From the NCBI GenBank assembly GCA_021324075.1, contig JAJPJW010000054.1, positions 500 through 64,499 on the forward strand: DNA of 64,000 nt, given 5' to 3'. Position numbers and translations under genes: made by a program. Within the stretch, counting starts at the first letter, position 1. Each line of letters begins with the position of its first letter. The stretch comes from Pseudomonadota bacterium. GTDB lineage: Bacteria; Oederibacteriota; Muellerivitia; Muellerivitales; Muellerivitaceae. The notes beneath the pieces were generated by a model. That model was not told the origin of the DNA. It saw only the letters and a list, made by a program, of their open reading frames with translations, and did no database searches. This document shows positions 3,335 through 35,895 of the stretch, in pieces.

Positions 3335-3337
3335 CCC

Positions 3338-5821
3338 ATGGCTTCGCCCAAAGGCAAGAAAACCACCACCCGCCGCAAATCCGTTACCCCCCAAAAGGCC
3401 AAGCCGGTTCAGGTGAAAGCGGCCCCGGCGGCCGTTTCCCAGACCGACTTCCTCGGGTTGATGCTCTCCTGGGGCCTGGTTTTCCTGGCCCTGCTGTCCC
3501 TGCCCAACGCCCAGCTTTTGGTCCCGGGCTGGCGGTTTTTTTCCGGGCTGCCCTTTTACCCCCTCCTGATCCTCGGCTTCGCGGGTATGGTTTATTTCTT
3601 CCGGCGGATCCCCGAAGCGGGGACCACCGAGGACATCAGATCCCAATGGGCCCGCCCGATCTTCTTCCTCCTGCTCGTCCTGGGGGCCTTCATCCGGCTC
3701 CAGCAGATCAACCGTATTTCGGGCTGCATCGACAACGACCACTGGATGTGCGCCGACGAAGCCCTCAAGATCATGGAAGAGGGCGACCGGCCCATCCTCC
3801 TGCCCTATGGCCAGAGGGAGCCCTTCTTCGCTTATCTTTCCGCGGCCATCTGGTCCCTGAACCCCCAGGCAACGGCCAACGTAGCCCTGACCCTTTCCTC
3901 GGTATTGGTGGACGTCTTCATCCTGTGGTCCTTCTACCTGTTGGGCAAAGAGTTCGGCGGGCGCCGCGGGGGATTGATCTTCATGGGCATGGGCATGATG
4001 AGCAAGACGCTGGTGGAGATCTCGAAGATCAACTTCGGCTTCCACACGGACGTGCTGGCTTGCGCCTTGACGGTGCTTTTCCTCTTCCGGTTGCTGAAGA
4101 ACCCGAAACTGGCCCGCTTCCTCCATTGGGGCCTGGCCCTGACCCTCGGGTCCTACGTCTATGTGGCCTTCCGGCTCTGGACCCCGGCCATCATCGGCGG
4201 GTTGTGGCTTTGGATGTTTTGGAATCCGGAGCTGAGGCCCAAGACCCGCATCGGCTTCAGCCTTGCCTTCGCGGTCATGGGCGGCTGGACCTTCGCCTTT
4301 TTTTACGTCAACCGGGTGATCCCCCATGAATGGGGATGGGTGCATTTCCTTTCCTCCGGTTGGGGCCTCCTGGCGCTAGTGGCGGGGCTGCTTTTCCTCT
4401 ATATCCGGTCGGGAATGGAAAGCCGCGGTAAGGACTGGGTCTTCAAATGGGCCAGCGGGGCGCTTTTGGTAGCCCTGCTCTTAAGCCCACTTTGGTCCCA
4501 GCCCAATTATTCAGACCACCCGAACGAGATGGTCATTTTCCACCCCCGTTTCGAGATGACCAAGATGCAGTGCATCCTTTACTGCCTGGACAATTTTTGG
4601 AACGGCTTCAAGCTGCTCTTCAGCTACGACAACAACAACCCCTTCTGGAATATCCCCCCCATGCACGGAGATTCCTACATGGATTTTTTCATCCCCCTCT
4701 TCGGCTCGGCGGCCCTGGCGGCCTACCTGGCCCGCCCCCGCCTGGTCCAATCCTCCATCCTGTGCCTTTGGTTCATCGGCTACGCGGCCTTTTTCGTGAC
4801 CCATGGGGCCCATTCCAACCGGCTGATGGCCACCCTTCTGCCGATGTTCCTCATCGCGGCCTGGGGGGCCTACCGCCTGTGGCAGGTCTTCCGTTTTTCC
4901 ACCCTAAAAAACGGCAAGGCCTGGGGTAACGGCCTGCTTTTGGCGGTGGGGCTCTGGTCGTTGGTAACCAACGTCCAGATCCTGCAGGATTGGATGAACA
5001 TGCGCTGGCCCGACGCCTTCGTTCAAGACGTGATCGACGTCCTGCCCCAAGACAGGGTTTACCTGGTGCCCAGCGTGGGCCACTTCGGCGAAAGCGCCTG
5101 GGACCTGGTCAGCGAAGGCAAGGACGTCCATTTGGCCCTGGATTCCAATCCCATCGACCTGGTGGAAGGGGATAAGGGCAAGGATGTGGTGGTCATCCTC
5201 TGGGGAGGGGACGACGCCATGAAGGCCAAGCTGACCCAGGCCTTCCCCGGCGGCAGTTGGAGCGAGAAGGACAGCGCCTGGCCCGTCACCTCCCTCAAAT
5301 GGATCACCATTCCCTTCAGCCAGATCCCCCAGGACCCCAAGGCTTACCTCTCCGTCCGCTATACGCCGGCCACCGATTGGTCGAGGAAGTTCTACAACGG
5401 ATTATTATGCCGGGGGATCATCCGTGATGAGGACCGCTCCAACCATTGGAATGACAACCTGCCGGTCACCTTCATCCAGGGGGACAACACGGGCCGCATC
5501 TCAGGGGAATGGGAAGTGGAAAAGGACGGCGTTTACGAGCTCAGCTTCCGGACCAACAACACGACCCAGCTTTGGGTGGACGGAAAGAAGGTTCTGGAAC
5601 TGCAAAAACCGGACGGTAATCCGGCGCGCCGGACCCGCCTTAAGCTTTCCCAAGGGAAGCACCCCGTTGAGCTCTTGACGGATTTCCATGAGGAGCATGA
5701 TTTCCCGGCGGTTCTCGTCCGTTCCCCGGACGGAAGCTGGGAAAAGCCGTTGGAGGAACTCTCCCAATCCCCGCAGGCGGCTCCGGTCGCGGTGGACTCA
5801 ACCCCGGCATCCGTCCACTGA
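3338..5821 (+). CDS. ArnT/PMT_2-like GT-C membrane glycosyltransferase with a C-terminal PA14-like domain (paralog).
   Basis: 827-aa ORF with a Lys-rich N-terminal tail. The loop 'ADEALKIMEEGDRPILLPYGQREPFFAYLSAAIW' aligns with the ArnT 'DExRYAE...GDW...YFEKPPLxYW' motif block. The C-terminus 'GVYELSFRTNNTTQLWVDGKKVLE...HPVELL' is PA14-like. It lies 3 nt downstream of the previous gene. Confidence 0.65.
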   Translation: MASPKGKKTTTRRKSVTPQKAKPVQVKAAPAAVSQTDFLGLMLSWGLVFLALLSLPNAQLLVPGWRFFSGLPFYPLLILGFAGMVYFFRRIPEAGTTEDIRSQWARPIFFLLLVLGAFIRLQQINRISGCIDNDHWMCADEALKIMEEGDRPILLPYGQREPFFAYLSAAIWSLNPQATANVALTLSSVLVDVFILWSFYLLGKEFGGRRGGLIFMGMGMMSKTLVEISKINFGFHTDVLACALTVLFLFRLLKNPKLARFLHWGLALTLGSYVYVAFRLWTPAIIGGLWLWMFWNPELRPKTRIGFSLAFAVMGGWTFAFFYVNRVIPHEWGWVHFLSSGWGLLALVAGLLFLYIRSGMESRGKDWVFKWASGALLVALLLSPLWSQPNYSDHPNEMVIFHPRFEMTKMQCILYCLDNFWNGFKLLFSYDNNNPFWNIPPMHGDSYMDFFIPLFGSAALAAYLARPRLVQSSILCLWFIGYAAFFVTHGAHSNRLMATLLPMFLIAAWGAYRLWQVFRFSTLKNGKAWGNGLLLAVGLWSLVTNVQILQDWMNMRWPDAFVQDVIDVLPQDRVYLVPSVGHFGESAWDLVSEGKDVHLALDSNPIDLVEGDKGKDVVVILWGGDDAMKAKLTQAFPGGSWSEKDSAWPVTSLKWITIPFSQIPQDPKAYLSVRYTPATDWSRKFYNGLLCRGIIRDEDRSNHWNDNLPVTFIQGDNTGRISGEWEVEKDGVYELSFRTNNTTQLWVDGKKVLELQKPDGNPARRTRLKLSQGKHPVELLTDFHEEHDFPAVLVRSPDGSWEKPLEELSQSPQAAPVAVDSTPASVH

Positions 5822-5845
5822 ACCGATCTTAACTGAGGTAGGGCC

Positions 5846-8152
5846 ATGGCAAAAAAACCTAAATCGAAACCGTTCCGGCGGTCCCCCCAAGGCGGGCCTT
5901 CCTCCGCCCCTGCCCAAGGGAGGTCCGGTGAATGGCAAGTGAGGCTGGAGGGGTTTCTTAAAAAGGCCGGAAAAGCCGAGTTCGAGCACCACCGGGCGGC
6001 GGGCCTTTTCGCCTTGTTCACCTTGATGCTCCTATGGAAGCCGTTGACCCGCCCCAGCATGGTTCCCGGGGGCTATGACATGGTCACGGCCATTCCCTAC
6101 AAATCCTTGTGGTTTGAGAGCCTATTGCGGCTGCATCCGATCCTTTGGAACCCTTATTCCAGCCTGGGACAGCCCTTTGTGGCGCTTGAAAGCCCAGGCG
6201 CCTATGCACCCCTCAACTTTCTGCTCTTCATCCATCCTATTTCCTACGCCTTTACCTGGATGCACATCTTCCATTTCCTATCCGCGGCTTTCTTCACCTA
6301 CCTTTTCCTGAGGGGTTTGGGATGCGGATGGGTCAGCGGGTGCCTGGGTGCCCTGGCTTTCGCCTTCTCGGGTTTCTTCATGGGGCATTATTTTTGGACC
6401 CATCCCAACCTGATCTGGGGCGCCTCCTGGATGCCCCTGCTCTTATACGGTCTCCAGCGCTTCACTGAAAAAAGGGACTTCGCCGGGCTTTTCATAGCTT
6501 CCCTGGCCCTGGGCCTGAGCATCCTCGAAGGCGCCCCCCAAATGGACATGTACGCGCTGATAGCGGGCGGGTTTTGGCTGGCCTGGGCTTGGATCGGCAG
6601 GAAGATCAACTGGAAGGAATTGTGTGGCGCCCTGGCCTGCCTGCTTTTCCTTTCCTTTTCCATCGGGCTTTGCCAATTGGCGCCGGGATACCAATTCGCC
6701 CATCTCAGCAGCCGCTGGTTCTGGGAGTGGGGCGACATCATGAAGGATGTTTTCCGTCCGGAATACTTCAGGTTTTTTATCGATCCTTTCTTCCTGGGTG
6801 GTCCCGGACACGGTGACTACAGGGGCCAATGGGGGTTCCAGGAAGTTGTCGCTTATGTCGGTCTCTTGCCCCTTTTCCTTGCCTTGGGCGGCTTCTTATG
6901 GCTGATGAAGCGAAAACCACTGGTTTGGTGGTTCGCCCTGCTGGGGCTTTTAGGCTGCATCCTAGGCATGGCCGATTCCACCACCCCCACCCACTATATC
7001 TATTTGTTTTTCTACAAATTCATTCCGGGATTCGGGCATAACCGGAGCGTCGCCCGGATCATGCTTCTGGCCGAATTCTCCCTGGCCTGTCTTGCCGCCC
7101 TGGGATTGGAAAATTGGATCGATTTTTGGAAGGGGAAGCGACTTCCCGATCCCTTCCGCAAAGCGCTCACTACCTGGGTTCCGGCGGCGGTATTGGTTTT
7201 TTCCGCGGCGGACCTCTACCATTTCGGCTGCTACAACACTGCTGTCGGGGTCGATTACCGCCAGTATTGGGACCCGGGGATGTTCATCGGCGCGGGGATA
7301 CTGAAGGACATCCAGGACGACCCGACCTACCCGCGGATCCAACCGGAAACCACCGCCGATTCGGATTACGAAATGATCTACAAGGTGTCGGCCGTGATGA
7401 CCGGTTATCCCACGCAAATCCAGACGACCGCCAAGTACCTCGCCGAACAATGGAGATATTCGGAAACGCCTTTGCCGGATTTGCTCCATCTGACCTACCG
7501 TTGGAGGCAGCCGGATTTCACCGCCACCGAGAGGTGGCAGCCCCTTCCCGGCTACAAGTCCTTCTGGACCGACACGAAGGCTTTTCCCAGGGCCTTCATG
7601 GTGGGGGGGTACCAATCGGACCCGGATTACAACCAGGCCATCTATGACATCCGGGACGGGAAAGTGGACCCGCACGAGCAGGTCATCCTCGGACAGGACC
7701 CCCCCGACCGGCCTAACTGGCCCAAGGGCTGGGTAGGGGAAGCCAAGATCACGAAATATGATTGGAACGAGCTTGAGATGGACTGCACCAACGACCGTCC
7801 CTGCTTCCTCGTCCTCTCTGACTCTTTCTATCCCGGCTGGCGGGCCCGGGTGGATGGGCAGCCAACGACGATTTACCAGGCCAATGGGGCCCTCCGGGCT
7901 GTGGAACTGCCCCAGACGGGCCACCACTCGGTTGAAATGTCCTATTATCCGGGGATCATTACCTATTCTTTCGCTTACTCCCTTTTGGCCTGGGTCGTTC
8001 TGGCCCTGGCCTGGATTTTCCGTAAGGGCCTGGCCCGCCGGTATTCGGACCTTTTCAGGGGAAAACTGATTTTCGCCGGGTTCGTGAACCATTTTGAAAC
8101 ACCGCCCTCCCGTAAAGCGGCCTCCGGGCGGCGCGGCAAGGGAAAAAAATAG
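5846..8152 (+). CDS. YfhO-family membrane protein, a GT-C-type glycosyltransferase that uses polyprenyl-phosphate-sugar donors.
   Basis: 768-aa polytopic ORF. The C-terminal block 'SDSFYPGWRARVDGQPTTIYQANGALRAVELPQTGHHSVEMSY' followed by a final TM is characteristic of the YfhO family. Confidence 0.7.
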   Translation: MAKKPKSKPFRRSPQGGPSSAPAQGRSGEWQVRLEGFLKKAGKAEFEHHRAAGLFALFTLMLLWKPLTRPSMVPGGYDMVTAIPYKSLWFESLLRLHPILWNPYSSLGQPFVALESPGAYAPLNFLLFIHPISYAFTWMHIFHFLSAAFFTYLFLRGLGCGWVSGCLGALAFAFSGFFMGHYFWTHPNLIWGASWMPLLLYGLQRFTEKRDFAGLFIASLALGLSILEGAPQMDMYALIAGGFWLAWAWIGRKINWKELCGALACLLFLSFSIGLCQLAPGYQFAHLSSRWFWEWGDIMKDVFRPEYFRFFIDPFFLGGPGHGDYRGQWGFQEVVAYVGLLPLFLALGGFLWLMKRKPLVWWFALLGLLGCILGMADSTTPTHYIYLFFYKFIPGFGHNRSVARIMLLAEFSLACLAALGLENWIDFWKGKRLPDPFRKALTTWVPAAVLVFSAADLYHFGCYNTAVGVDYRQYWDPGMFIGAGILKDIQDDPTYPRIQPETTADSDYEMIYKVSAVMTGYPTQIQTTAKYLAEQWRYSETPLPDLLHLTYRWRQPDFTATERWQPLPGYKSFWTDTKAFPRAFMVGGYQSDPDYNQAIYDIRDGKVDPHEQVILGQDPPDRPNWPKGWVGEAKITKYDWNELEMDCTNDRPCFLVLSDSFYPGWRARVDGQPTTIYQANGALRAVELPQTGHHSVEMSYYPGIITYSFAYSLLAWVVLALAWIFRKGLARRYSDLFRGKLIFAGFVNHFETPPSRKAASGRRGKGKK

Positions 8153-8212
8153 GGAAGAACCCGGCCGAAAATCCGGGTTCGCCCTTAAAATCCATAGCGT
8201 AAGGAGATCTTC

Positions 8213-11158
8213 GTGCCTTCCAGGGAAAAAGGGAGCAGCCCCAAGAAAAATCCGGCCCATCCGGCCTTATTGGCCGTGATGGCTCTTCTGTTGCTTGCGG
8301 CATTCGTGTTCGGGCAGGTGGAGGTTTTGAAAGGACGAACGCTGACCGGCTTCGCCTTTTCACTGGCTGCGGTGGGATTGGGCCTTGCCTTGTACCTGGG
8401 AAAAGGACAACTGCCCAAGCTCGGGGTGAAGACACAAAGTCCCCGGCGAAAAAGCCGCGGTCCCAAGGGGCCGGGCGGATTCTTGAAAAACCTCGACCCA
8501 GTCTCCCTTTTAAAGGGTGCGGGTGTTCTGGCTGCGCTGGTACTGGCGGGTATGGGCCAATTCTATTTGTGCCAAGCGGGCGGTGATTCCACCCTGAAGG
8601 CCGGCCTTTGGTTTTTTTCCGCCGCGGCGGTATTGCTGGTGGCTTCCTTGTGGTCCTGGCGCCGGGAAGGCCTGAAGAACGCTCCCCTTGCCCCCTCCGC
8701 CGAATGGATCCTGCTGGGGCTTGTCCTCCTGATCGCGGTCTTCCTGAGGTCTTACCAAATCGCCTCCCTCCCCTCGGGGCTCTTCATCGACCAGGGCTTC
8801 CAGGGTTATTCAGCCCAACGCATCCTCCACGAAGGCTGGCGGCCTTTTTATGTCGAGGACATCTTCCATGCCTATTCGCTGGCGCTTTACCAGCTGGCCT
8901 TCTGGTTTAAGCTCTTCGGGGCGGGGGAGGTCAGCCTCAAGCTTTTCTACGCCTTCCTCGGCATCCTGGGTTTCCCCCTGGTTTACTGGTCCTTCCGTCA
9001 GCTGGCAGGCCCCCGGGTGGCCCTCTTGATCCTCTTTATCCTGGCCGTCATGCGCTGGAACTACCTTTTCAGCCGGAACGGTTTTCCCACGGTCCAGATG
9101 ATGCTCTACATGTTCGGGACGCTTTCCTTCCTCCTTTACGCCATCCTGCCCAAGAAACCTGCGGACCCGAAGCCGTTTTACAAGGCGGCCATCGCCGCCG
9201 CGGCCTTTTTTGTCCTCGGGGTTTTCCCCTTCGCGTTCTTTTCCCTCTTCTACACAGTGAAGGAAAAATCGGCGGTCCTGGCCGTTTTAGCCGTGTTGGC
9301 CGCCCTGGGCCTTCTGGCCCTCATGGCTTTCTTCATCTACCGGTCGAAAAACAGGCCCACCCTGGTGGCCACGCTTTTGGCTGCGGGTTTCTTCGTCTCC
9401 GGCTTTTATACTTACCAGGCCTATAAGGTCTTCCCGCTGCTTTTGGTCCTGTGGGCCCTCTATGAAGCGGTAGTGAACTGGAGGGAACTCAAGAAAAAAT
9501 GGCCTTATATCCTCCTCTTTGCCGTTCTTGCGGTGGTCCTGGTGCTTCCGGTTTTAGCCAACCCGAATACGCGCGAGAACGACCTTTCCATCTTCCCCCG
9601 GATCCGGGCGGAACACAGCCTCAGGCCCTTCCTGGAGGTGCTCTCCCGGACCGCAGTCATGTTCAACCGGCAGGGTGACCCGAACCCGCGGCATAACCTG
9701 CAGGACTACCGGATGCTGGACGACGTGTCGGGCGCTCTCCTTATCCTGGGGTTGGCCTATGCCCTCTTCCGCGCCAACCGGCGCAAGTATTTCTACGCCC
9801 TGGCGGGCTTTTTCGTCATGAGCCTGGCCTGCGTCCTTTCCATCGACGCGGCCCATGCCAACCGGCTCTTTGCCATGACTCCTTTCATCGCCTTCGTCAT
9901 TGCCGCACCCCTCAGCGCCCTTTGGGGGCGGTTGCGGGCGCTTTGGGGCGAAAAGGGGGAATGGGCCTTCCTGGTGGCCGCTGCGCCCTTCCTGGTGGCC
10001 ATGACGGACCAGAATTTCGACGTCTATTTCCATAAACAAGCCCGCAACCAGGCCTGCTGGAGCGAGTATTCCATTGCCGAGACTTCGGCCGGGCGCATGG
10101 TGGCCGACCATGGCGGCAATTATGATTATTACGTCACCCCCCGTTACTACAACTTTTATACCCTCGACTTCCTGGCCTATCCCTGGCTCAACCAGGTGAA
10201 GCCCCTCCTCCTGCCCGACAGCCTTGTTTCGCGCAGTCCCGGCACGTCACGGGGGCTCTATTACGCCCTGGAGCAGGGCCGCACGGGCGTTTTGGACATG
10301 CTCAAGACCCTCTATCCCGGGGGAACGGCGGAGTATTTGGTGGACCCGACAGGGAACACGGTGGAGTATTTCTACCGCGTCCCCCCGGAAGAAGCGGCGA
10401 AGGCCAAGGGCCTGACCGCCCGGTTTGACCCTCCCGCCGGTGGAAAGGCCGGGGCGCAGATCGACCGTTTCCCGGATGGATTGCCCCCCGGACCCTATCA
10501 CGCCGAATTGACCGGCAACCTTTATGTGCCTGTTACGGGGGATTACCAGTGGGAACTCAAGGGGAACGTCAAGGCGGGGTTGAAAGTGAAAGGATCGAGG
10601 CCCGGCCGTGGTTTTGCCCACCTGGACAAAGGGGAACATCCGGCCACGGTCGAACTGACGGTGCCCGAAGGGGTGACGCCTTCCCTCGTGATCCAGCAAG
10701 TCCCGGAGAAGGGCGTGGCCACCATCCTGGACGCAGGTTCTTTCGACAGCCTTCCATCGGCCAAGGGGTTATTGGGCCGTTATTTCAACAACTGGGACGG
10801 CGCAGGATCCCCCTTGTTGGCCGAATGGGACCCCATCCTCAATTTCACCAACGGCAACGACTTTTCCGTCCAACCTCCGCCCGCTTCGGTCCAATGGGCC
10901 GGCGAAATCGAGGTCCAAGAGGCAGGAACCTACCGCTTCCTGGGCAGCCCGCCCAATATTGCTTCCTTGAAGGTGGACGGGAAGGAGTGGCCGCTGGGGG
11001 AAGCCCAATCCAAGGGCCGTTCCCTTACGGCCGGAAGGCATTCCATCGAGCTGCGGGTGGGGAAGGGGCAGCGCTTCGACAATTTTTCGTTTTATTGGAC
11101 GCTTCCCGACGGAAAGACCGAGGTGGTTCCTTATTCAGTTTTAGGCGAGATCCGGTAA
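8213..11158 (+). CDS. Large GT-C-like polytopic membrane protein with two C-terminal PA14 domains.
   Basis: 981-aa ORF with a GTG start after an AAGGAG RBS. 'GLFIDQGFQGYSAQRILHEGWRPFY' resembles the first-loop motif of PMT_2 enzymes. 'GLLGRYFNNWDGAGSPLLAEWDPILNFTNG...FSVQWAGEIEVQEAGTYRFLGSPPNIASLKVDGKEW...FYWTLPDG' is a canonical PA14 signature, preceded by a second, weaker PA14-like unit. Confidence 0.65.
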   Translation: MPSREKGSSPKKNPAHPALLAVMALLLLAAFVFGQVEVLKGRTLTGFAFSLAAVGLGLALYLGKGQLPKLGVKTQSPRRKSRGPKGPGGFLKNLDPVSLLKGAGVLAALVLAGMGQFYLCQAGGDSTLKAGLWFFSAAAVLLVASLWSWRREGLKNAPLAPSAEWILLGLVLLIAVFLRSYQIASLPSGLFIDQGFQGYSAQRILHEGWRPFYVEDIFHAYSLALYQLAFWFKLFGAGEVSLKLFYAFLGILGFPLVYWSFRQLAGPRVALLILFILAVMRWNYLFSRNGFPTVQMMLYMFGTLSFLLYAILPKKPADPKPFYKAAIAAAAFFVLGVFPFAFFSLFYTVKEKSAVLAVLAVLAALGLLALMAFFIYRSKNRPTLVATLLAAGFFVSGFYTYQAYKVFPLLLVLWALYEAVVNWRELKKKWPYILLFAVLAVVLVLPVLANPNTRENDLSIFPRIRAEHSLRPFLEVLSRTAVMFNRQGDPNPRHNLQDYRMLDDVSGALLILGLAYALFRANRRKYFYALAGFFVMSLACVLSIDAAHANRLFAMTPFIAFVIAAPLSALWGRLRALWGEKGEWAFLVAAAPFLVAMTDQNFDVYFHKQARNQACWSEYSIAETSAGRMVADHGGNYDYYVTPRYYNFYTLDFLAYPWLNQVKPLLLPDSLVSRSPGTSRGLYYALEQGRTGVLDMLKTLYPGGTAEYLVDPTGNTVEYFYRVPPEEAAKAKGLTARFDPPAGGKAGAQIDRFPDGLPPGPYHAELTGNLYVPVTGDYQWELKGNVKAGLKVKGSRPGRGFAHLDKGEHPATVELTVPEGVTPSLVIQQVPEKGVATILDAGSFDSLPSAKGLLGRYFNNWDGAGSPLLAEWDPILNFTNGNDFSVQPPPASVQWAGEIEVQEAGTYRFLGSPPNIASLKVDGKEWPLGEAQSKGRSLTAGRHSIELRVGKGQRFDNFSFYWTLPDGKTEVVPYSVLGEIR

Positions 11159-13243: not shown

Positions 13244-13936
13244 CTATGGGATGAACTTTAAATCGACCCAATCCACGTTGCTTTCGGTATTGGTGAACTC
13301 GGTGTTGTCCGCGCAGAGGACGAGTTCCTTGGCTCCGGCGACGGGCACGTCGATGGGAAAGGCTTCCGCGTCCGACTTCATCTTGGGACTCCTGAAAATT
13401 TCGCGCCCATCGGCCAGGACGACGTAGACCACCCCCCAATCAGGGCTGGAAGTGGAGTCCTGCCCCACTTTGCAGGAAAAGTGGCCGGCCTTCCCTTGCA
13501 AATCAAAGGCGATCTTGGAAGGCGCATGGGTACCGAACCCGTTTTGGAAGGTCGTTCCATGGATAACCAGCGGCCTCCCGTCGATATTCAGGTTCACCTT
13601 GGGCGGAAGGGTAAAGGTGACGTTGGAGATTTTTTCGCCTAAATAGCCGAATTTGTTGCGGATGTCGTCCGATACGGGGCCGGTCCAAGCGGCGTAACCC
13701 CATTCAGCGGGAATGCCGTCCACGGTTGCGTCCAACTTGTGCCTTTCGAAACCGTCTTGTCCGGACCAGAGGCGGACCATGCGGAGGGAAGGCTGAAGGA
13801 CTGGCAAGAAGGCCAGGGCCAAAAGAAGGGCGGCCGCAAGGGCTGGGAGGGCACCGGTATTTTGGGAGGCCGGAGAGGCTTTCATCGGGGCCTTGCCCTT
13901 GGTTTTTTCGGTTCGGGACCGGACTTGTTTCGGCAT
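13244..13936 (-). CDS. Secreted or membrane-anchored NPCBM-like (NEW2) carbohydrate-binding domain protein.
   Basis: N-terminal hydrophobic anchor. 'NIDGRPLVIHGTTFQNGFGTHAPSKIAFDLQGKAGHFSCKVGQDSTS...VVYVVLADGREIF' matches the NPCBM consensus (IDGK..Y..G.G.HA.S.I.Y.L...F...VG.DD). Confidence 0.55.
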   Translation of the reverse strand: MPKQVRSRTEKTKGKAPMKASPASQNTGALPALAAALLLALAFLPVLQPSLRMVRLWSGQDGFERHKLDATVDGIPAEWGYAAWTGPVSDDIRNKFGYLGEKISNVTFTLPPKVNLNIDGRPLVIHGTTFQNGFGTHAPSKIAFDLQGKAGHFSCKVGQDSTSSPDWGVVYVVLADGREIFRSPKMKSDAEAFPIDVPVAGAKELVLCADNTEFTNTESNVDWVDLKFIP

Positions 13937-16479: not shown

Positions 16480-16818
16480 TTTTTTCGGGGGAATCCAGCC
16501 TTAAAAATTGCCGACAATATGGGCTAGGTATACTCCAAAGGTCCCGATCCGTCAAGGAAACACCCGGTACGGGACATGAATAGGTGGTTCGTCTTTCGTT
16601 TCGAAAAGAGAGAACGGGTCGGGAGATGGTCCGGATCCGGGGGGCCCTTGGGTCGTTCGGCAGTCCCTTTTTTTGCCATCCGCTAAAGATGAGTTAAGTT
16701 TGGAAAGCCCCAAGCAAGTTTGAATTGAGGCGCCATTTCTTTGGCCGTGGAAATGGCAACGAATGTGATAAACTTGGCAAACCAGCTTTTCGAATCCGAT
16801 ATTTAACCCGGGTAACCC

Positions 16819-17523
16819 ATGCCAAGATCTTCTTCCTTCCGCACGGATTTCGAGAACCACAAGGACACTTACCGGCAGGAAATCCAAAATTCCATTTCCT
16901 TTATCGGCCAAAACCTGGATTTTTTCACGCAAGTCAAGGTGGATTGCCTGTTGGACTTGACGCGCCGCTATGTGGGCGGCTCCAACCGGTTGAAAATCCT
17001 GGACGTGGGTTGCGGGGTCGGGATCACGGACCAGTATTTAACCGGCTATTACCAAAAGCTTTACGGTGTGGACCTAAGTCCCGGGGTGGTTCGCAAGGCC
17101 AAACAGTTGAATCCGCGGGCCAGCTACCGGCATTATGCGGGGCGCACCCTTCCCTATGCCTCCAATTCCATGGATGTTACCTTCGCCATCTGCGTCATGC
17201 ACCATGTGCCGCCCGAAGGGCTGGGCCGTTTCGCTTTGGAAATGACAAGGGTCACGCGAAAAGGGGGCCTGGTCGTGGTCATCGAGCATAATCCCTGGAA
17301 TCCCCTGACCCAGATTGCGGTTTCCCGGTGTGAAATGGACGACGACGCCATTCTTTTAAGAAGCCGGAAGGTCGAAGAGCTTTTAAAAGTAAATGGAGAT
17401 ATCGTCGAGAAAAGGTACATCCTGTTCACGCCTTTTCCGGTGCGTCCCTTTCGGTTTTTGGCCCCCTTCCTCGGCAAATTTCCATTGGGTGCCCAGTACT
17501 ACGTCGCCGCCAGGAAAAAATAG
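16819..17523 (+). CDS. Class I SAM-dependent methyltransferase (Methyltransf_11/12 type).
   Basis: Motif I 'ILDVGCGVGITDQYL', followed by an acidic post-motif and 'VMHHVPPEG'. Confidence 0.75.
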   Translation: MPRSSSFRTDFENHKDTYRQEIQNSISFIGQNLDFFTQVKVDCLLDLTRRYVGGSNRLKILDVGCGVGITDQYLTGYYQKLYGVDLSPGVVRKAKQLNPRASYRHYAGRTLPYASNSMDVTFAICVMHHVPPEGLGRFALEMTRVTRKGGLVVVIEHNPWNPLTQIAVSRCEMDDDAILLRSRKVEELLKVNGDIVEKRYILFTPFPVRPFRFLAPFLGKFPLGAQYYVAARKK

Positions 17524-17549
17524 GCGTTCGAGAACGCGAGGAGGCCCCA

Positions 17550-18245
17550 TTGGGCAAGAAGGTCGCGATCCTTCAATCCAATTACATTCCGTGGAAGGGC
17601 TATTTCGACATCATCCATAGCGTTGATTTGTTCGTTTTTTACGACGACGTCCAGTTCACGAAGAACGACTGGCGGAACCGCAACAAAATCAAGACCCCCA
17701 ACAGAAGCCAATGGTTGACCATCCCCACGGGCTACCACAACGACCAACTCATCAATGAAGTTACCCTGCCTTCCAAAGACTGGCAGGAGAAGCATTGGAA
17801 GACCCTGACCCAGTACTACGTCCGGGCCCCCTATTTCAAAACCTACGAGCCCCTTTTGCGGAAAATCTACCTCGAAGCCGAGTGGAAGTTCCTTTCGCCC
17901 CTGAACCAATCCCTCATCCGTCTGATCTCCAAGGACATCCTGGGGTTGCCGACGGAATTCGCCCAGTCTTCGGATTTCGAGCTTCCGGGTAAAAAGACCG
18001 AACGGTTGATCGAACTTTTGAAGAAATGCGGCGCCGATTATTACCTTTCGGGCCCCGCGGCCAAGGATTACCTGAAAGAAGAAGCCTTTGAACAGGAGGG
18101 AATCCGGCTAGAATACAAGGACTATTCGGGCTATCCCGAATACCCCCAGTTTTACCCGCCCTTTGAACATTCGGTGACGATCCTGGACCTGTTATTCCAC
18201 ACGGGGCCCAAGGCTTCGGATTATATCTGGGGATGGCGGAACTAG
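17550..18245 (+). CDS. WbqC-like family protein (O-antigen/aminosugar cluster-associated).
   Basis: The N-terminus 'VAILQSNYIPWKGYFDIIHSVDLFVFYDDVQF' is the WbqC family signature. Confidence 0.7.
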   Translation: MGKKVAILQSNYIPWKGYFDIIHSVDLFVFYDDVQFTKNDWRNRNKIKTPNRSQWLTIPTGYHNDQLINEVTLPSKDWQEKHWKTLTQYYVRAPYFKTYEPLLRKIYLEAEWKFLSPLNQSLIRLISKDILGLPTEFAQSSDFELPGKKTERLIELLKKCGADYYLSGPAAKDYLKEEAFEQEGIRLEYKDYSGYPEYPQFYPPFEHSVTILDLLFHTGPKASDYIWGWRN

Positions 18246-18303
18246 CGGGGCGGAAGGCCGGACCCGGATTTTATCCTGGTTTGTTTAAAGCAAGGAGCCT
18301 TTC

Positions 18304-19236
18304 ATGGCTTTTATTTCAGCCGTCATTCCGGTTTACCGCAGCGAAAAAACCCTTCCCGAACTTTACCTGCGCCTGAGGGCCGCCCTGGGGAAGGTCTCTC
18401 CCGATTACGAGATCCTGTTCGTCGACGACCACGGCGGCGACGGCTCCTGGAACGTCATCAGCGACCTCGTCCACCGGGACAAAAGGGTGGGCGGGATCCA
18501 GCTCAGCAAGAATTTCGGCCAGCACGCGGCCACCCTCTGCGGCATCCAGTGGTCCAAGGGCAAATGGATCGTCACCCTGGACGACGACCTGGAGCACCAG
18601 CCCGAATTCATCCCCAAGCTTTACAAAAAGGCCCTGGAGGGTTTCGACCTGGTTTACGGCGTCTATCCCCAGCGTTCCCACAGTTGGTGGCGCAACCTCA
18701 CGTCCCGGATAGCCCGGTTCCTCTTCCAGATGGCCATCCCTTCCTTGAATTTCGAATATACCTCCTTCCGCGTCATCCGGCGGGAGACCGCCCTGGCCCT
18801 TTCCCAATTCGATTCCCCCTTCCCCTTCGTGGACGGCTATCTTTCCTGGGCCACCAACTACTACGCCACCGTTCCCGTGGAGCACGGGAAGCGGGCCGAG
18901 GGGGGGAGCAATTACACCTTCGGGAAGCTCCTGTCCCACACCATCAATATTTTCGTCACTTTTTCCGACCTTCCCCTGAAGATGGCGGCTTGGATCGGCA
19001 TCTTTTCATTCGTGGGCGGTTTTTCCTGGCTGGTGGTCATTTTTTTAATGAAGGTTTTCGGTGAAATTACGGTCAACGGCTATACCTCCCTGATGGCGGC
19101 GTTGATCACGTTCAACGGCATCCAATTCTTCATCCTGGGGGTTTTCGGCTCCTACCTGGGAAGGATCAATTTCAAGACCTCCAAGCAACCCCTTTTCCTC
19201 GTGGGCTCCATCAAGGGTTGCGCGAAGCGCAAATAA
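18304..19236 (+). CDS. GT2 polyprenyl-phosphate sugar transferase, ArnC/GtrB/CsbB-like.
   Basis: GT2 fold 'ISAVIPVYRSEKTLPELY...ILFVDDHGGDGSWNVI' with a DxD-like 'LDDD' motif and two C-terminal TM helices, typical of ArnC/GtrB. Confidence 0.75.
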   Translation: MAFISAVIPVYRSEKTLPELYLRLRAALGKVSPDYEILFVDDHGGDGSWNVISDLVHRDKRVGGIQLSKNFGQHAATLCGIQWSKGKWIVTLDDDLEHQPEFIPKLYKKALEGFDLVYGVYPQRSHSWWRNLTSRIARFLFQMAIPSLNFEYTSFRVIRRETALALSQFDSPFPFVDGYLSWATNYYATVPVEHGKRAEGGSNYTFGKLLSHTINIFVTFSDLPLKMAAWIGIFSFVGGFSWLVVIFLMKVFGEITVNGYTSLMAALITFNGIQFFILGVFGSYLGRINFKTSKQPLFLVGSIKGCAKRK

Positions 19237-19270
19237 GATTTCGGGACTTTGACCGAAAAGCGAGGTTGTT

Positions 19271-19933
19271 TTGAAACCCATCGTCCTATTTGGAACAGGG
19301 CCTTACGCTTCGATGGTCCATCATTACCTTTCACGCCAGTCCGCCAGCCGGGTGGCGGCTTTTACCGTCGACGCCCAATACTCGCCCGGGGAGTCCTTTT
19401 GCGGGCTGAAGGTGGCCCCCTTCGCCGAAGTGGAACGGCTTTTCCCGCCGGCCGAGTATGACATGCTGGTTGCGGTGGGCTACAGCCAGGTCAACCGGAT
19501 CCGCGCCGAAAAATGCCGGGAGGCCAAGAGCAAAGGCTACCGTCTGGCTTCCTTCCTCCACCCCACCAACGTATTTTGGGACGGGTTCCAGCCCGGGGAG
19601 AACTGCATTTTTTTCGAAAACAACGTCTTCCAGCCCTTCTCGAAAATCGGCAACAACGTCTGCGTCTGGGCCGGAAGCGACATCTGCCACCACGCCGAGG
19701 TGGGGGACAACGTCTATATCGCGCCGGGAGTCGTCGTCTCCGGGGGGGTCCGGATCGGGGACAACAGTTTCATCGGTTCAAACGCGACGATCCGGGACCA
19801 GGTCAAGATCGGCAAAAACTGCGTGATCGGCGCCGGGGCCGTCATTCTCCACGACGTGGGGGACAATGAAGTCCATGCCGCCCCCGAACCCCGGCAGCTG
19901 TCCGTTAAAAGCAACGAGTTGAAGAATATCTGA
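19271..19933 (+). CDS. PglD/NeuD-family sugar N-acetyltransferase (left-handed beta-helix).
   Basis: N-terminal Rossmann-like 'MKPIVLFGTGPYASMV' followed by hexapeptide repeats ('IGNNVCVWAGSDICHHAEVGDNVYIAPGVVVSGGVRIGDNSFIGSNATI'). The start is TTG. Confidence 0.75.
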   Translation: MKPIVLFGTGPYASMVHHYLSRQSASRVAAFTVDAQYSPGESFCGLKVAPFAEVERLFPPAEYDMLVAVGYSQVNRIRAEKCREAKSKGYRLASFLHPTNVFWDGFQPGENCIFFENNVFQPFSKIGNNVCVWAGSDICHHAEVGDNVYIAPGVVVSGGVRIGDNSFIGSNATIRDQVKIGKNCVIGAGAVILHDVGDNEVHAAPEPRQLSVKSNELKNI

Positions 19934-19965
19934 GCGCCTGAAAAAACCTTAAGGCTTGGCCGACC

Positions 19966-21102
19966 ATGAACCTGATCCCTTTCAACAAACCCTTCCTGGT
20001 GGGAAGCGAGTTGGAGAACATCCGCCAGGCGCACGCCAACTGGCACTTGTCGGGGGACGGCCCCTTCACCCAGAAATGCCACCAGTGGCTGGAAAAATCC
20101 ATCGGGTCCCGAAAGGCCCTCCTGACCCATTCCTGCACGGCGGCCCTGGAAATGTCCGCCCTCCTCCTGGACCTGAAACCGGGCGATGAGGTCATCATGC
20201 CTTCCTACACCTTTGTTTCCACGGCCAACGCCTTTGCATTGCGCGGGGCAGTGCCGGTTTTCGTGGATGTGAGGCCCGACACCCTCAACCTGGATGAAAA
20301 CAAGGTGGAAGCCGCCATCACCCCCAAGACCAAAGCCATTGCGGTGGTCCATTACGCCGGGGTGTCCTGTGAGATGGACCGGTTTTTGGAAATCGCCCGC
20401 CGCCACCGCCTTTGGCTGGTGGAGGACGCGGCCCAGGGTATCGGTTCGAGCTACAAGGGGAAGGCCCTGGGCAACCTGGGCTCCTTGGGAGCCCTGAGCT
20501 TCCATGAGACGAAAAACATCATTTCGGGGGAGGGTGGGGTGCTCCTGGTCAATGACGAAGCTTTTGAGGAAAGGGCGGAGATCATCCGGGAGAAAGGCAC
20601 CAACCGGATCAAGTTCCGCAAAGGAATGGTGGATAAATACACCTGGGTGGACCTGGGTTCCTCCTACCTTCCCAGCGAGCTGATCGCGGCCTTCCTTTGG
20701 GCCCAGTTGGAGAATTTCGACGCCATCATGAAAAAACGCATGGACCTTTGGTTGGCCTACCACCAAGCCTTCGAAGACGCCGAGAGGAAAGGCTTCCTGC
20801 GCCGGCCCATCATTCCAAGGGACTGCCGGCACAACGCCCATATGTATTACCTGCTCCTGCCCCAAGCGGAAAGGCGCGCCGCCTTCCTGGCCGCCCTCAA
20901 CGAAGGCGGGGTGAACGCCGTCTTCCACTATGTGCCCCTCCACAGCTCCCCGGCTGGGCAGAAATACGGGAAGGCCCAGGGTTCCCTGGAGGTCACGACG
21001 GAGATGAGCGCCCGCATTGTGCGCCTTCCCCTTTGGATCGGGTTGGAAGGACAGCAGGCCACGGTGATCGAGAAGGTGTTGTCGGAATTAAAAAGAGGCT
21101 GA
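19966..21102 (+). CDS. DegT/DnrJ/EryC1-family PLP-dependent sugar aminotransferase, WecE-like (dTDP-4-keto-6-deoxyhexose transaminase).
   Basis: 'IPFNKPFLVGSELENI...DGPFTQKCHQWLE' and 'VIMPSYTFVSTANAF', 'HETKNI', 'REKGTNR' closely follow the E. coli WecE sequence as recalled from memory. Confidence 0.8.
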   Translation: MNLIPFNKPFLVGSELENIRQAHANWHLSGDGPFTQKCHQWLEKSIGSRKALLTHSCTAALEMSALLLDLKPGDEVIMPSYTFVSTANAFALRGAVPVFVDVRPDTLNLDENKVEAAITPKTKAIAVVHYAGVSCEMDRFLEIARRHRLWLVEDAAQGIGSSYKGKALGNLGSLGALSFHETKNIISGEGGVLLVNDEAFEERAEIIREKGTNRIKFRKGMVDKYTWVDLGSSYLPSELIAAFLWAQLENFDAIMKKRMDLWLAYHQAFEDAERKGFLRRPIIPRDCRHNAHMYYLLLPQAERRAAFLAALNEGGVNAVFHYVPLHSSPAGQKYGKAQGSLEVTTEMSARIVRLPLWIGLEGQQATVIEKVLSELKRG

Positions 21103-21119: not shown

Positions 21120-21947
21120 CTATCGACGCTTCCAAAGGGCCCTAGATTTTTCCAGGGATTCCTCCATCAAGGCGCCGTCCCAGGCGACCGGGGAGGAAGT
21201 TTTAGTAAGCCATCGCAGGAAGACCACCAGGCTCATGGACAGGACGATAAAACCGTCCCAAACCGTCGTGCCCGCCCGGTAAAGGGGCACTTCCACCTCA
21301 AATTCATTGTCAATCTTGAAACCTTCCCGCGCCGAGATCAGCGCGATTTCCTGGGCGCAGGAGTATTTCACGCCACGGTAATACCTCAGGATAGGCTCTA
21401 AGGTTTTGACCTTCAAAAGCCTCAAGCCCGATTCCACGTCCCGGTATTTTTGCCCGGAGAGAAGGGAATTGGTCCAGGTCAGGAACCGGTTGCCCCAGAT
21501 TTTATAGGTCGGGTAAACCGAGAAATCACGGCGTGTCAGGACCACGTCGGCCCGGCGCGCCGCCAAGTGGCGCACAAGGGCGGGGATGTATTCGGGTTTG
21601 TGCTGTCCGTCGGCGTCAATGGTGACGACGACGTCCTCGGGTCCCGCCATTTTTTTTCCCGCCAGGTACAGGACGAAAAGGAAGCCCTGCTTCAAAGCGC
21701 CGGCCATTCCGGTGTTCGCCGGCAAGTCGACGATATAGGTGTTTTTCCTTTTCCTGGCGAAGGCCTTGAGCAGGGCCAGGCTTTTGTCCCGGGACCCGTC
21801 GTTGACGCAAACCAGGAAGTCCACCTGCCGGGCCAGGCGCGGCAGGATGTTGCCCAGGGTTTTTTCCTCGTTATAGACGGGCAGGACGACAATGGTTTTA
21901 GGCAAGGATTCCCTTTTCGAAGGATTTCGCTTTGAGGGTGCGGTCAA
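21120..21947 (-). CDS. GT2 glycosyltransferase, DPM1/polyprenol-phosphate-sugar synthase-like.
   Basis: 'IVVLPVYNEEKTLGNILPRL...VCVNDGSRDKS...TIDADGQH' GT2-A motifs. Confidence 0.7.
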   Translation of the reverse strand: MTAPSKRNPSKRESLPKTIVVLPVYNEEKTLGNILPRLARQVDFLVCVNDGSRDKSLALLKAFARKRKNTYIVDLPANTGMAGALKQGFLFVLYLAGKKMAGPEDVVVTIDADGQHKPEYIPALVRHLAARRADVVLTRRDFSVYPTYKIWGNRFLTWTNSLLSGQKYRDVESGLRLLKVKTLEPILRYYRGVKYSCAQEIALISAREGFKIDNEFEVEVPLYRAGTTVWDGFIVLSMSLVVFLRWLTKTSSPVAWDGALMEESLEKSRALWKRR

Positions 21948-22663
21948 GCCAGGGGATCGGGGCCCAGCCTCAACAAGAGGGCCCGGCCCAGGTATTTCAA
22001 CAACGTGGCCAACCCCAGTTTGGATTCCCCCCGGGTTCGGTCGACGAATTCAATGGGTGATTCCTCCACCTTCAGTCCCGCCCGGGTGCAGCGGTAAAGG
22101 ATTTCAGAAACCGTAAAGGGGTCGCGGGCGGCCAAGCTACGGACCTTGATTTTTTCCAAGGCCCTTCTTGAAAAAGCCCGGAAACCCGAGGTGGGATCCT
22201 TGGGTTTCAAGCCCAACACGACTTTCAGGTAATAGCGGGCGAAGTTACTGGTCCATTGGCGGTGGAAAGGGCGGTCCATATCCTTCCCACCGGGCATATA
22301 GCGGCTTCCGATGACCACGTCCGCCTTCCCGGATTCCAGGGGCGCCAGGAGGGCCGGGATGAACTTGGGCTGGTGGGAAAGATCGGCGTCCATTTCCACA
22401 ACGGCCCCCGCCCCCATTTGAAGGGCTTTTACGAAGCCGTCGCGGCCGGCCCAACCCCGGCCCTTGACGGAACGGTCCCGGAGCAACAGATGCAGTTTTT
22501 TGTCCTTTTTCATGAGCTTCCGGACTTCCTCGAAGGTGCCGTCCGGGGAGGAGTCGTCCACCACCAGCACCTGGGCCTGGGGGACGCTTTTATGGAGCTG
22601 TTTGACGAGTTCGCCGATATTGGCCCGTTCGTTGTAGGTGGGAACCATGACGATGGTTTTCAT
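21944..22663 (-). CDS. GT2 dolichyl/polyprenyl-phosphate mannose (hexose) synthase-like, DPM1/Ppm1 type.
   Basis: 'IVMVPTYNERANIGELVKQL...VLVVDDSSPDGT...EMDADLSHQP'. It overlaps the previous gene by 4 nt. Confidence 0.75.
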   Translation of the reverse strand: MKTIVMVPTYNERANIGELVKQLHKSVPQAQVLVVDDSSPDGTFEEVRKLMKKDKKLHLLLRDRSVKGRGWAGRDGFVKALQMGAGAVVEMDADLSHQPKFIPALLAPLESGKADVVIGSRYMPGGKDMDRPFHRQWTSNFARYYLKVVLGLKPKDPTSGFRAFSRRALEKIKVRSLAARDPFTVSEILYRCTRAGLKVEESPIEFVDRTRGESKLGLATLLKYLGRALLLRLGPDPLA

Positions 22664-33678: not shown

Positions 33679-34935
<1,257 letters not shown>

Positions 34936-35022
34936 GAAATTTAATCGCTGTCATTGCAAGGAATGCCCCGCGAATAGCGGGGCGTTCATGACGAAGCAAC
35001 CTCAGTTTAAATATGTTTTCCA

Positions 35023-35060
35023 AAAGGCGAACCTTTTAGGTTCGCCTTTTTTGTTTTCGC
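35023..35060 (+). terminator. Rho-independent terminator.
   Basis: 'GGCGAACC-TTTTA-GGTTCGCC' followed by 'TTTTTTGTTTT'. Confidence 0.7.
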
Positions 35061-35098
35061 TGATTGTTCTGTATATAAAATGTCTCAGGTGGAAGGAG
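35051..35098 (+). promoter_or_regulatory. Sigma70-like promoter plus RBS for the TIR gene.
   Basis: TTGTTT(35051-56)-N17-TATAAA(35074-79), and a GGAAGGAG RBS at 35091-98 placed 7 nt before the ATG at 35106. Confidence 0.5.
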
Positions 35099-35105
35099 AT
35101 GGCGA

Positions 35106-35888: not shown

Positions 35889-35895
35889 ACACGTT

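Follow-up and report, generated by a model that had tools for sequence, protein, structure and literature searches.

Polyprenyl-monophosphate sugars serve as donors in several described glycosylation systems. In the Arn system (ArnB, the formyltransferase domain of ArnA, ArnC, ArnD, ArnE/F and ArnT), a 4-aminotransferase, an N-acylation, a family 2 glycosyltransferase (GT2) that loads undecaprenyl phosphate, a flipping step and a GT-C enzyme follow one another. The Gtr (GtrA, GtrB, GtrC), CsbB/GtcA/YfhO, GtlA/GtlB and Pgf (PgfS, PgfM1, PgfM2) systems have in common the logic of a GT2, a small flippase and a GT-C enzyme. The Francisella FlmF2/NaxD/FlmK, Bordetella LgmA/B/C and mycobacterial PpgS/Rv3779 systems use GT2s of the ArnC/dolichyl-phosphate mannose synthase (DPMS) type to make a polyprenyl-phosphate-N-acetyl-hexosamine for GT-C enzymes; they start from the uridine diphosphate (UDP) sugars of N-acetylgalactosamine (GalNAc) or N-acetylglucosamine (GlcNAc), and a deacetylase acts on the lipid-linked sugar. 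To our knowledge, the characterised donors of this kind all derive from UDP or guanosine diphosphate (GDP) sugars, and carry glucose (Glc), GlcNAc, mannose (Man), 4-amino-4-deoxyarabinose (Ara4N), GalNAc or glucosamine (GlcN). Here we describe a locus of five genes at positions 16819-21102 of a 64,000-nucleotide (64-kb) stretch of DNA from a Pseudomonadota bacterium (assembly GCA_021324075.1, contig JAJPJW010000054.1), the whole of which is called the window. The genes encode a methyltransferase, a WbqC-family protein, a GT2, an N-acetyltransferase and an aminotransferase (Table 1). We hold it to be fairly probable that they form a single operon for the making of a polyprenyl-phosphate-linked 4-amino-4,6-dideoxyhexose donor, and that this operon is one instance of a widespread cassette.

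The GT2 aligned over its full length to the ArnC profile NF007986 (5e-46) and to the PgfS profile (4.9e-45). Its closest solved structures, likewise matched full length, are ArnC (9hwj, 2.2e-46) and GtrB (5ekp, 7e-41), and these alignments cover residues 4-302 (ArnC) and 4-305 (GtrB), including the C-terminal membrane helices; the hydrophobic segments of the protein lie at residues 216-234, 237-255 and 263-281. The DXD motif of ArnC and the residues assigned to the acceptor phosphate or the donor diphosphate (R128, R131, R137, S141 and R205) have been defined (PMC12690121). In the alignment, D93-D94-D95-L96-E97-H98 of the GT2 falls on ArnC residues 100-105 (D100-A-D-L-Q-N105), a motif that is unchanged in 15 relatives, and R124, R130, S134 and R197 correspond to ArnC R131, R137, S141 and R205. 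The scores are far under the equivalog cut-offs of both families (ArnC NF007986, 157.2 against 529 bits; PgfS NF047588, 154.1 against 500 bits), and so the GT2 appears to form a separate clade within the polyprenyl-phosphate glycosyltransferase class, and is an orthologue of neither ArnC nor PgfS. A change from YNE, as in ArnC and GtrB, to YRS beside the nucleotide pocket was considered as a marker for deoxythymidine diphosphate (dTDP) as opposed to UDP sugars, and was rejected, as it also occurs in GT2s of Lachnospiraceae that have neither WbqC nor WecE nearby.

The aminotransferase is, by homology, a putative WecE orthologue at equivalog level. It passes NF008687 (dTDP-4-amino-4,6-dideoxygalactose transaminase; cut-off 375 bits, score in Table 1), and it passes TIGR02379 as well (586.5 against 434.85 bits), for which the NCBI name is that of the gluco product. 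Against the WecE structures of Klebsiella and Escherichia coli it aligned end to end over residues 2-373 (6blg, 4.1e-138; 4piw, 8.1e-138), and its motif around the pyridoxal-phosphate lysine, SFHETKN, is the same as in both. Models for ArnB, PseC and DesI score much lower, with ArnB at 198 bits against a cut-off of 631. The acetyltransferase exceeds the TIGR03570 (NeuD/PglB/VioB) cut-off of 160.8 bits over residues 4-203 and matches Hexapep at 4.5e-22; the match to PglD_N is weak (20 bits, cut-off 23.4). Its nearest solved relatives are the acetyltransferase domain of PglB (4m98, 9.3e-17), PerB (4ea7, 2.5e-15) and VioB (7txp, 2.1e-12), and the target of all three is the amino group at C4 of a 4-amino-4,6-dideoxyhexose nucleotide.

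The methyltransferase lies under the cut-off of every NCBIfam equivalog. It is 84% identical to its counterpart in the close relative L171 (L numbers denote loci and P numbers proteins) and 41-45% identical to proteins in four Lysobacterales loci, in which neither WbqC nor WecE was detected. In the Lysobacterales locus that was scanned by Pfam (L023), it adjoins a related GT2, a GtrA and an epimerase. On this pattern, the methyltransferase seems to go with the lipid-loading GT2 and not with the genes for the amino sugar.

The five open reading frames (ORFs) are spaced by 26, 58, 34 and 32 nucleotides (nt) in the ORF map of the window. The G+C content at third codon positions (GC3) is 0.68-0.80 in the three that were measured, with an overall window G+C content of about 0.57, values that are typical of real genes. 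An identical GT2 was found in the same gene order on three independently assembled contigs, from ENA (28.8 kb), JGI (6 kb) and Logan (3.3 kb); two of the three hold all five genes, and on the shortest the aminotransferase is cut by the contig end. Gene callers start the acetyltransferase at 19313, which gives 206 amino acids (aa), and the longer form begins at 19271; the TIGR03570 alignment begins at residue 4 of this longer form. The divergent gap of 339 nt upstream of the operon is presumed to be a shared control region. A promoter and terminator scan gave matches at chance level, the gap itself holding a single sigma-70-like match (16774-16803), the same count as in shuffled sequence, and tRNA and Rfam scans were empty.

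Much of this had been anticipated. The original prediction, which was made from the letters and their ORFs alone, had placed the same five genes at these positions on the forward strand, and the family matches there are far above chance. Its assignment of the GT2 to the polyprenyl-phosphate transferases, as opposed to soluble or processive GT2s, is borne out by the end-to-end ArnC and GtrB matches, the DXD motif and the residues at the places of ArnC R131, R137, S141 and R205, and its WecE-like sugar aminotransferase, as opposed to a non-sugar DegT member, by the structure matches near 1e-138 and the retained SFHETKN. The sugar that it had named, an N-acetylated and possibly methylated 4-amino-4,6-dideoxyhexose, is still the likely one, from the homology of the WecE-equivalog and NeuD/PglD/VioB-type enzymes and from gene association for the link to the GT2.

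The comparison with other bacteria extends this picture. Related loci were collected from a scan of one genome per species and from look-ups of individual homologues. The GT2 has abundant homologues at 60-66% identity, in Thauera, Propionivibrio and Chromatium among others, and cassette loci came from Gammaproteobacteria, Betaproteobacteria, Geobacteraceae, an Acidobacteriota metagenome-assembled genome and Paenibacillus sedimenti. Fifteen loci were assessable, in that their GT2 is at least 50% identical to that of the window and at least 3 kb of flank was available. WbqC lies beside the GT2 in all 15, and an N-acylating enzyme is likewise present in each, a hexapeptide acyltransferase in 13 loci and a formyltransferase in 2. 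WecE-like genes (at least 45% identity) are found in 13 of the 15. Thirteen also hold a flippase candidate, drawn from three unrelated families (4 GtrA, 7 small EamA/SMR, 2 LPG_synthase_TM), which is to be expected if the sole requirement is the flipping of a small glycolipid; the remaining two, L014 and L113, have no candidate, as in the window. GtrA (PF04138) occurs in the related cassettes L005, L006, L011, L012, L016 and L092, and was confirmed by scan in the related L023; the small EamA/SMR and LPG_synthase_TM candidates were confirmed as members of their families too. These counts uphold the proposal of the original prediction that the locus follows the logic of the Arn and CsbB/GtcA/YfhO systems. 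In 13 of 18 cassettes, a large multi-pass membrane protein (at least 420 aa and at least 7 helices) is encoded no more than 8 kb away. When WbqC served as the query, 27 loci were assessable; of these, 23 have within 6 kb a GT2 that is 295-600 aa long and carries membrane helices at its C-terminus, and 20 have a WecE-like gene; a second GT2 clade, with the motifs T-L/M-Y-x-S-S and L-I-D-C-D-L-E-E, is linked to WbqC as well. By these sequence comparisons, the GT2 belongs to a widespread conserved cassette of at least four phyla. Its core consists of GT2, N-acylating enzyme, WbqC and WecE, and a flippase and a GT-C enzyme may accompany them. No description of a GT2/WbqC/WecE cassette was found in the searchable literature. 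The functional logic itself is expected, but the class of donor, the tie to WbqC and the exchange of flippases have so far gone without description.

Most explicit is the locus of the cultured strain Paenibacillus sedimenti WST5 (L017:6754-18484, NZ_JACVVD010000002.1), which holds, in this order, a YfhO-like GT-C, GT2, formyltransferase, WbqC, EamA, EamA, WecE, RmlA-like protein, RmlC, GalU, RmlB and RmlD. Its RmlB, RmlC, RmlD and WecE are above their NCBIfam cut-offs, and the two EamA/SMR proteins are half-size, an ArnE/F-like pair. It reads as a complete Arn look-alike for a dTDP sugar. The nearest metagenomic relative of the window locus (L090), with a GT2 78% and a WbqC 72% identical, has a formyltransferase in place of the acetyltransferase. 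The window copy is typical for the cassette save for the absent flippase and the added methyltransferase, which none of the 15 assessable loci contains. In Proteobacteria, the cassette has two further conserved members that the window lacks: a protein of about 324 aa without a Pfam match (L005:2016-2990, with homologues in L004, L006, L007, L101, L134 and L145) and a second hexapeptide-repeat protein.

Several functions that such a pathway would require were not found in the window. Hidden Markov models built from related-locus proteins (16 GtrA, 22 small EamA/SMR and 6 LPG_synthase_TM; hmmsearch --max over all stop-to-stop frames of at least 40 aa) gave nothing below E = 0.3 for any of the three flippase families, and the only small membrane ORF of the window (50-220 aa, at least two hydrophobic segments) is one of 79 aa antisense to a GT-C gene. 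A tblastn search of the whole window with related-locus queries for RmlA, RmlB, RmlC and RmlD found nothing. Essentially all of the larger window ORFs were scanned with Pfam and NCBIfam, and neither a sugar epimerase or dehydratase nor a CE4, LmbE or YdjC deacetylase was detected. The original prediction had likewise seen no GtrA/GtcA-like flippase ORF and traced no dedicated 4,6-dehydratase; it had also called the donor module complete, which goes too far, since the window has neither the dTDP-glucose steps nor the flippase. We regard the missing flippase as a real but weak anomaly, since unlinked flippases are known elsewhere: in Listeria and Bacillus subtilis, the flippase GtcA is encoded apart from its partner genes.

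The link between the amino sugar and the GT2 comes from gene association. Two unrelated functions could share the operon, the dTDP amino sugar being made for cytoplasmic glycosyltransferases (for example the GT2, GT2 and GT9 genes downstream, for lipopolysaccharide (LPS) or exopolysaccharide) while the ArnC-like GT2 loads Glc or GlcNAc for the GT-C enzymes. We judge this improbable. Two GT2 genes and one GT9 gene do lie directly downstream, no feature of the GT2 sequence identifies its sugar, and the YRS motif also occurs in GT2s with no WbqC nearby. WbqC and DegT occur without an ArnC-like GT2 in L089, L103, L106 and L168 and in Bacteroides thetaiotaomicron. On the other hand, GT2s at least 50% identical to that of the window stand beside WbqC and an N-acylating enzyme in every assessable locus and with WecE in nearly all, across Pseudomonadota, Geobacteraceae, Acidobacteriota and Bacillota, and the second membrane-anchored GT2 clade is tied to WbqC too; a grouping conserved in this way is not expected if the functions are unrelated.

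Within the donor reading itself, a number of observations count against it. One of the acceptor-phosphate arginines of ArnC, R128, is replaced in the alignment by a tyrosine, Y121, in the GT2, and the sugar that this enzyme carries is read from its gene neighbourhood. The stereochemistry at C4, that is galacto (4-amino-4,6-dideoxygalactose, Fuc4N) or gluco (4-amino-4,6-dideoxyglucose, Qui4N), is not readable from the aminotransferase sequence. The flippase, RmlA and RmlB are not in the window. In Bacillota, WbqC and DegT stand in a flagellin-glycosylation island with a family 1 glycosyltransferase (GT1) and no lipid-loading GT2, and WbqC adjoins a DegT gene in a gene list of Bacteroides thetaiotaomicron (PMC10434189); pairs of this kind indicate that the amino sugar can also feed cytoplasmic glycosyltransferases. 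The GT-C identity of the neighbouring membrane proteins rests on PMT_2 and YfhO matches just over cut-off, two of them matched solved structures in the PA14 domain only, and the AlphaFold2 model of the PMT_2-type protein divergent from the operon was unusable (predicted local distance difference test, pLDDT, 42.8).

WbqC has been described as uncharacterised (PMC5532660). The window protein scores 267.2 bits against PF08889 (gathering threshold 21.3), its residues 9-224 aligning with positions 1-217 of the 218 in the profile. The family comprises 15,633 clusters at 50% identity (E up to 1e-3), and conservation across phyla is strong, at about 60% identity. The sequence of the window protein matched no solved structure, and no recognisable ATP-binding motif was identified in it. 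An AlphaFold2 model (pLDDT 93.4) has as its best solved match BshC (4wbd; Foldseek E 2.9e-3, template modelling (TM) score 0.45), and the next matches are nucleotidyltransferases and E1 adenylation domains; this weakly suggests a nucleotide-binding, Rossmann-like fold. Fusions of WbqC to GNAT acetyltransferases are found in three architectures (P0334, P0329, P0301), one of which includes a PseG-like Glyco_tran_28_C domain. A DegT aminotransferase (P0342) and a methyltransferase (P0353) are further fusion partners, and a tandem WbqC duplicate is also seen (P0254 completes this set of fused or duplicated proteins). An apparent WbqC-GT2 fusion, P0062 (528 aa, L004:9896-11587), was considered as a link and was not used; it is probably a frameshift artefact. 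Its contig, 'np1212', carries genes that appear split or truncated, including a DegT of 296 aa and a pair of LPG_synthase_TM fragments side by side, and its WbqC part is missing the last 20 or so residues.

We conclude that WbqC probably acts in the cytoplasm on the nucleotide sugar, alongside the aminotransferase and the N-acyltransferase, which argues against an ArnD-like deacylase. Such a deacylase belongs to a strict Arn-type pathway, in which the N-acetyl or N-formyl group is a temporary cap that WbqC removes on the lipid (the role of ArnD or NaxD), so that cationic Fuc4N is flipped onto lipid A or an anionic polymer and surface charge is changed. The cassette does reproduce Arn function by function except for the deformylase, and WbqC is the sole unassigned enzyme; the acyl enzyme alternates between acetyl and formyl types even in close relatives such as L090, the Paenibacillus locus has both a formyltransferase and an ArnE/F-like EamA pair, and the LPS genes of the host (MsbA-like, GT9, heptose pathway) are present. 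A fusion of deacetylase and acetyltransferase would nevertheless be futile, and WbqC is fused to GNAT, as well as to DegT and to a methyltransferase. It also occurs in cytoplasmic glycosylation loci without a lipid-loading GT2, and its predicted fold is like that of nucleotide-binding Rossmann-like enzymes and not of CE4, LmbE or YdjC. The deacylase role is weakened accordingly by the GNAT fusions and the cytoplasmic pathways, and we regard the strict Arn-type pathway as quite improbable.

Our best guess for WbqC is an ATP-dependent amide ligase. The fullest form of this idea is a variant of the donor reading with another sugar: WbqC would add an amino acid or other acid to the 4-amino group, which would then be capped with acetyl or formyl, giving an N-(acyl-aminoacyl)-Fuc4N donor. 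BshC, to which the WbqC model is structurally closest, is the putative enzyme for the addition of cysteine in the making of bacillithiol. The WbqC family takes its name from a gene in the O-antigen cluster of E. coli O121, and N-acetyl-glycine is attached to Qui4N in O121. The O121 O unit carries an amide-linked non-sugar constituent, N-acetyl-glycine (PMC7685785), and the namesake cluster of WbqC fits the ligase in this respect. The GNAT-WbqC fusions would also suit ligation followed by capping. The Foldseek match is weak, however, with neither a solved-structure match nor an ATP-binding motif at sequence level, and the characterised members of the acetyltransferase family found in the window acetylate the 4-amino group of the sugar itself. 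The variant is in our view unlikely, though not to be neglected.

Taken in order, the donor pathway that we favour would run as follows. RmlA and RmlB, encoded outside the window, would supply dTDP-4-keto-6-deoxy-D-glucose; a dTDP-sugar origin is suggested because the Paenibacillus locus carries rml genes and WecE together with the GT2 and WbqC. The WecE orthologue would aminate this intermediate to dTDP-Fuc4N, as equivalog-level homology indicates, and the NeuD/PglD/VioB-type enzyme would, by homology, acetylate its 4-amino group. WbqC and the methyltransferase may then tailor the sugar in the cytoplasm, before the ArnC/GtrB-type GT2 would move it onto undecaprenyl phosphate, a step for which homology gives the enzyme class and gene association the sugar. 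A flippase that is unlinked or unrecognised, and not encoded in the window, would take the glycolipid across the inner membrane. The adjacent GT-C enzymes would pass the sugar to a periplasmic or envelope acceptor, the PMT_2-type enzyme divergent from the operon being the first candidate. The product is likely to be polyprenyl-phosphate-N-acetyl-Fuc4N (Fuc4NAc), possibly methylated, for use by these neighbouring GT-C enzymes.

Table 1. Predicted features of the operon and its surroundings in the window (positions are those of the window; e-values and bit scores refer to the named profile).
Feature	Position	Strand	Support or context
Class I S-adenosylmethionine (SAM)-dependent methyltransferase, 234 aa, 0 membrane helix	16819..17523	+	Methyltransf_11 1.5e-18
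WbqC-family protein, 231 aa	17550..18245	+	PF08889 1.6e-79
Predicted polyprenyl-phosphate glycosyltransferase (GT2, ArnC/GtrB/DPMS type), 310 aa, C-terminal membrane helices	18304..19236	+	Glycos_transf_2 3.2e-28
Left-handed beta-helix N-acetyltransferase, NeuD/PglB/VioB family, 220 aa	19271..19933	+	TIGR03570 178.6 bits
Putative WecE orthologue, dTDP-4-keto-6-deoxy-D-glucose 4-aminotransferase, 378 aa	19966..21102	+	NF008687 597 bits
Divergent intergenic region, 339 nt, between PMT_2-type GT-C gene (-) and operon (+)	16480..16818	.	ORF map
GT-C-type membrane glycosyltransferase, 842 aa	13951..16479	-	PMT_2 33.5 bits (cut-off 26.1); divergent from operon
Small NPCBM/NEW2-domain protein	13244..13936	-	PF08305 7.1e-29; adjoins GT-C gene
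Array of four large GT-C-like membrane proteins, two with C-terminal PA14	743..11158	+	PMT_2/YfhO/PA14 matches
GT-C-like protein	743-3334	+	PMT_2 30.9 bits (cut-off 26.1)
GT-C-like protein	3338-5821	+	PA14 only
GT-C-like protein	5846-8152	+	YfhO 44.2 bits (cut-off 28.5), only the last 76 profile positions (C-terminal part)
GT-C-like protein	8213-11158	+	PMT_2 19.6 bits, below cut-off; PA14
Two short GT2 genes	21120-21947, 21944-22663	-	Convergent with operon; Glycos_transf_2 2.3e-22, 2.1e-26
MsbA-like ABC exporter	48410-50293		TIGR02203 559.8 bits, just under cut-off 602
LPS-related genes: GmhB-like HAD phosphatase, GmhA-like SIS protein, PfkB kinase, GT9 heptosyltransferase-like	50290-50904, 56316-56945, 57013-58029, 22698-23825		With the MsbA-like gene, indicative of a heptose-containing LPS

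The GT-C enzyme divergent from the operon is most likely the user of the lipid-linked sugar. It has 13 predicted membrane helices, four of them ahead of the first GT-C loop, and only 6 homologues were found. Its pairing with the small NPCBM-domain gene is kept in two relatives, L170 and L171, and in L170 NHL-repeat genes adjoin as well. In L171, whose GT2 is 90% identical to that of the window, the genes for the GT-C and NPCBM proteins are mixed in among those of the cassette; the GT-C gene stands two genes from WbqC and adjoins the methyltransferase. Between the PMT_2-type and YfhO-type GT-C genes of L170 lies a 731-aa protein with a spermidine-synthase-like domain (L170:12547-14742). The four array proteins at the start of the window are candidate additional users of lipid-linked sugars. 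The first two of them are 35% identical to each other, and each is 22-26% identical to two large proteins that flank the cassette in L087; the large GT-C-like proteins of the window have 10-16 predicted helices.

Four extra N-terminal helices (about 150-175 residues) precede the first canonical GT-C loop in the last array protein and in the divergent GT-C enzyme, and match no Pfam family. A hidden flippase domain in these extensions was considered and rejected, as a search that allowed E values up to 10 gave no GtrA, EamA or SMR signal. It would be highly improbable, in our estimate, that these helices flip the polyprenyl-phosphate amino sugar without any GtrA, SMR, EamA or LPG_synthase_TM protein, flipping and transfer being united in one protein, that WbqC is a new nucleotide-dependent tailoring enzyme and that the cassette represents an unrecognised, widespread class of polyprenyl-phosphate donors made from dTDP sugars.

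The two short GT2s that converge on the operon have one or no predicted membrane helix, and their best NCBIfam matches (PpgS, AglJ, dolichyl-phosphate hexose transferase and PgfS) are all below cut-off. Through this weak likeness to PpgS, AglJ and dolichyl-phosphate hexose transferases, they may be further polyprenyl-phosphate sugar synthases that feed the GT-C array, and the locus may therefore make more than one lipid-linked sugar. The MsbA-like, GT9 and heptose-pathway genes of the window indicate a putative diderm host with heptose-containing LPS.

Elsewhere in the window, a TIR-domain protein (35106-35888, forward strand; TIR_2 3.3e-17, weak Thoeris ThsB match, GC3 0.34) stands in a dip of G+C content (34001-36000, 50.5%) and is probably a horizontally acquired defence gene. 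A DUF559 protein (42601-42942, forward strand; 1.2e-44, GC3 0.36), which we take to be a Vsr-like endonuclease, resembles a small insertion between ABC-transporter-associated genes (40855-42549 and 42996-44090). A reverse-strand gene at 44096-45253 weakly matches the PorV/PorQ family (below cut-off, NF033709 6.6e-09), a hint of an outer-membrane protein related to type IX secretion.

If the donor reading is true, the cassette adds a dTDP-derived 4-amino-4,6-dideoxyhexose to the polyprenyl-monophosphate donors. Bacteria from soil, sediment and wastewater commonly carry the cassette, in several phyla, and it offers a handle on the very large WbqC family, which it ties to WecE-type aminotransferases and lipid-loading GT2s. 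Flippases of three unrelated families come and go while the remainder of the pathway stays constant, and this offers natural material for testing which proteins flip polyprenyl-phosphate sugars, a long-standing question. Several carriers are in culture, the candidates being Paenibacillus sedimenti WST5, Rhodanobacter umsongensis KACC 12917, Cognatilysobacter xinjiangensis KCTC 22558, Thiospirillum jenense DSM 216 and Pseudomonas fuscovaginae SE-1, and such questions are directly testable.

Compared with the described systems, the window operon keeps the order of the Arn steps. ArnC is the closest solved relative of its GT2, and the Paenibacillus version of the cassette even shares with Arn the formyltransferase and the EamA/SMR pair. 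Arn, however, draws on UDP-glucuronate through ArnA and ArnB, whereas the operon would draw on dTDP-glucose through the WecE orthologue; Arn uses a formyl group and the window an acetyl group. Neither an ArnD-type deformylase nor ArnE/F was found in the scanned window ORFs, while WbqC and the methyltransferase are extra, and the window GT-C proteins are far larger, some with PA14, and are not orthologues of ArnT. The Gtr and Pgf systems are as near in their GT2, with GtrB and PgfS matching that of the window as well as ArnC does, and one window neighbour matches YfhO. Yet Gtr, CsbB, Gtl and Pgf rely on common UDP sugars and require no sugar-synthesis genes, whereas the window has a dedicated amino-sugar pathway and no GtrA or GtcA.

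With the Fuc4NAc branch of the enterobacterial common antigen (ECA; RmlA, RmlB, WecE, WecD, WecF), the operon has in common the WecE orthologue and, in all likelihood, the nucleotide sugar dTDP-Fuc4NAc. In ECA the acetyltransferase is WecD, of the GNAT family, and WecF adds the sugar in the cytoplasm to a pyrophosphate-linked lipid intermediate; in the window the acetyltransferase is a left-handed beta-helix protein, and polyprenyl monophosphate apparently receives the sugar on its own. As to the Francisella, Bordetella and mycobacterial systems, their deacetylase has no counterpart in the scanned window ORFs, and the predicted sugar is a 4-amino-4,6-dideoxyhexose; the short downstream GT2s are weakly PpgS-like. 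The operon thus appears to work like Arn, Gtr and CsbB/GtcA/YfhO but is a member of none of them, because the ArnC, ArnB and PgfS cut-offs are failed, the functions of ArnD, ArnE/F and GtrA are absent, and the sugar would come by the WecE route of the ECA type.

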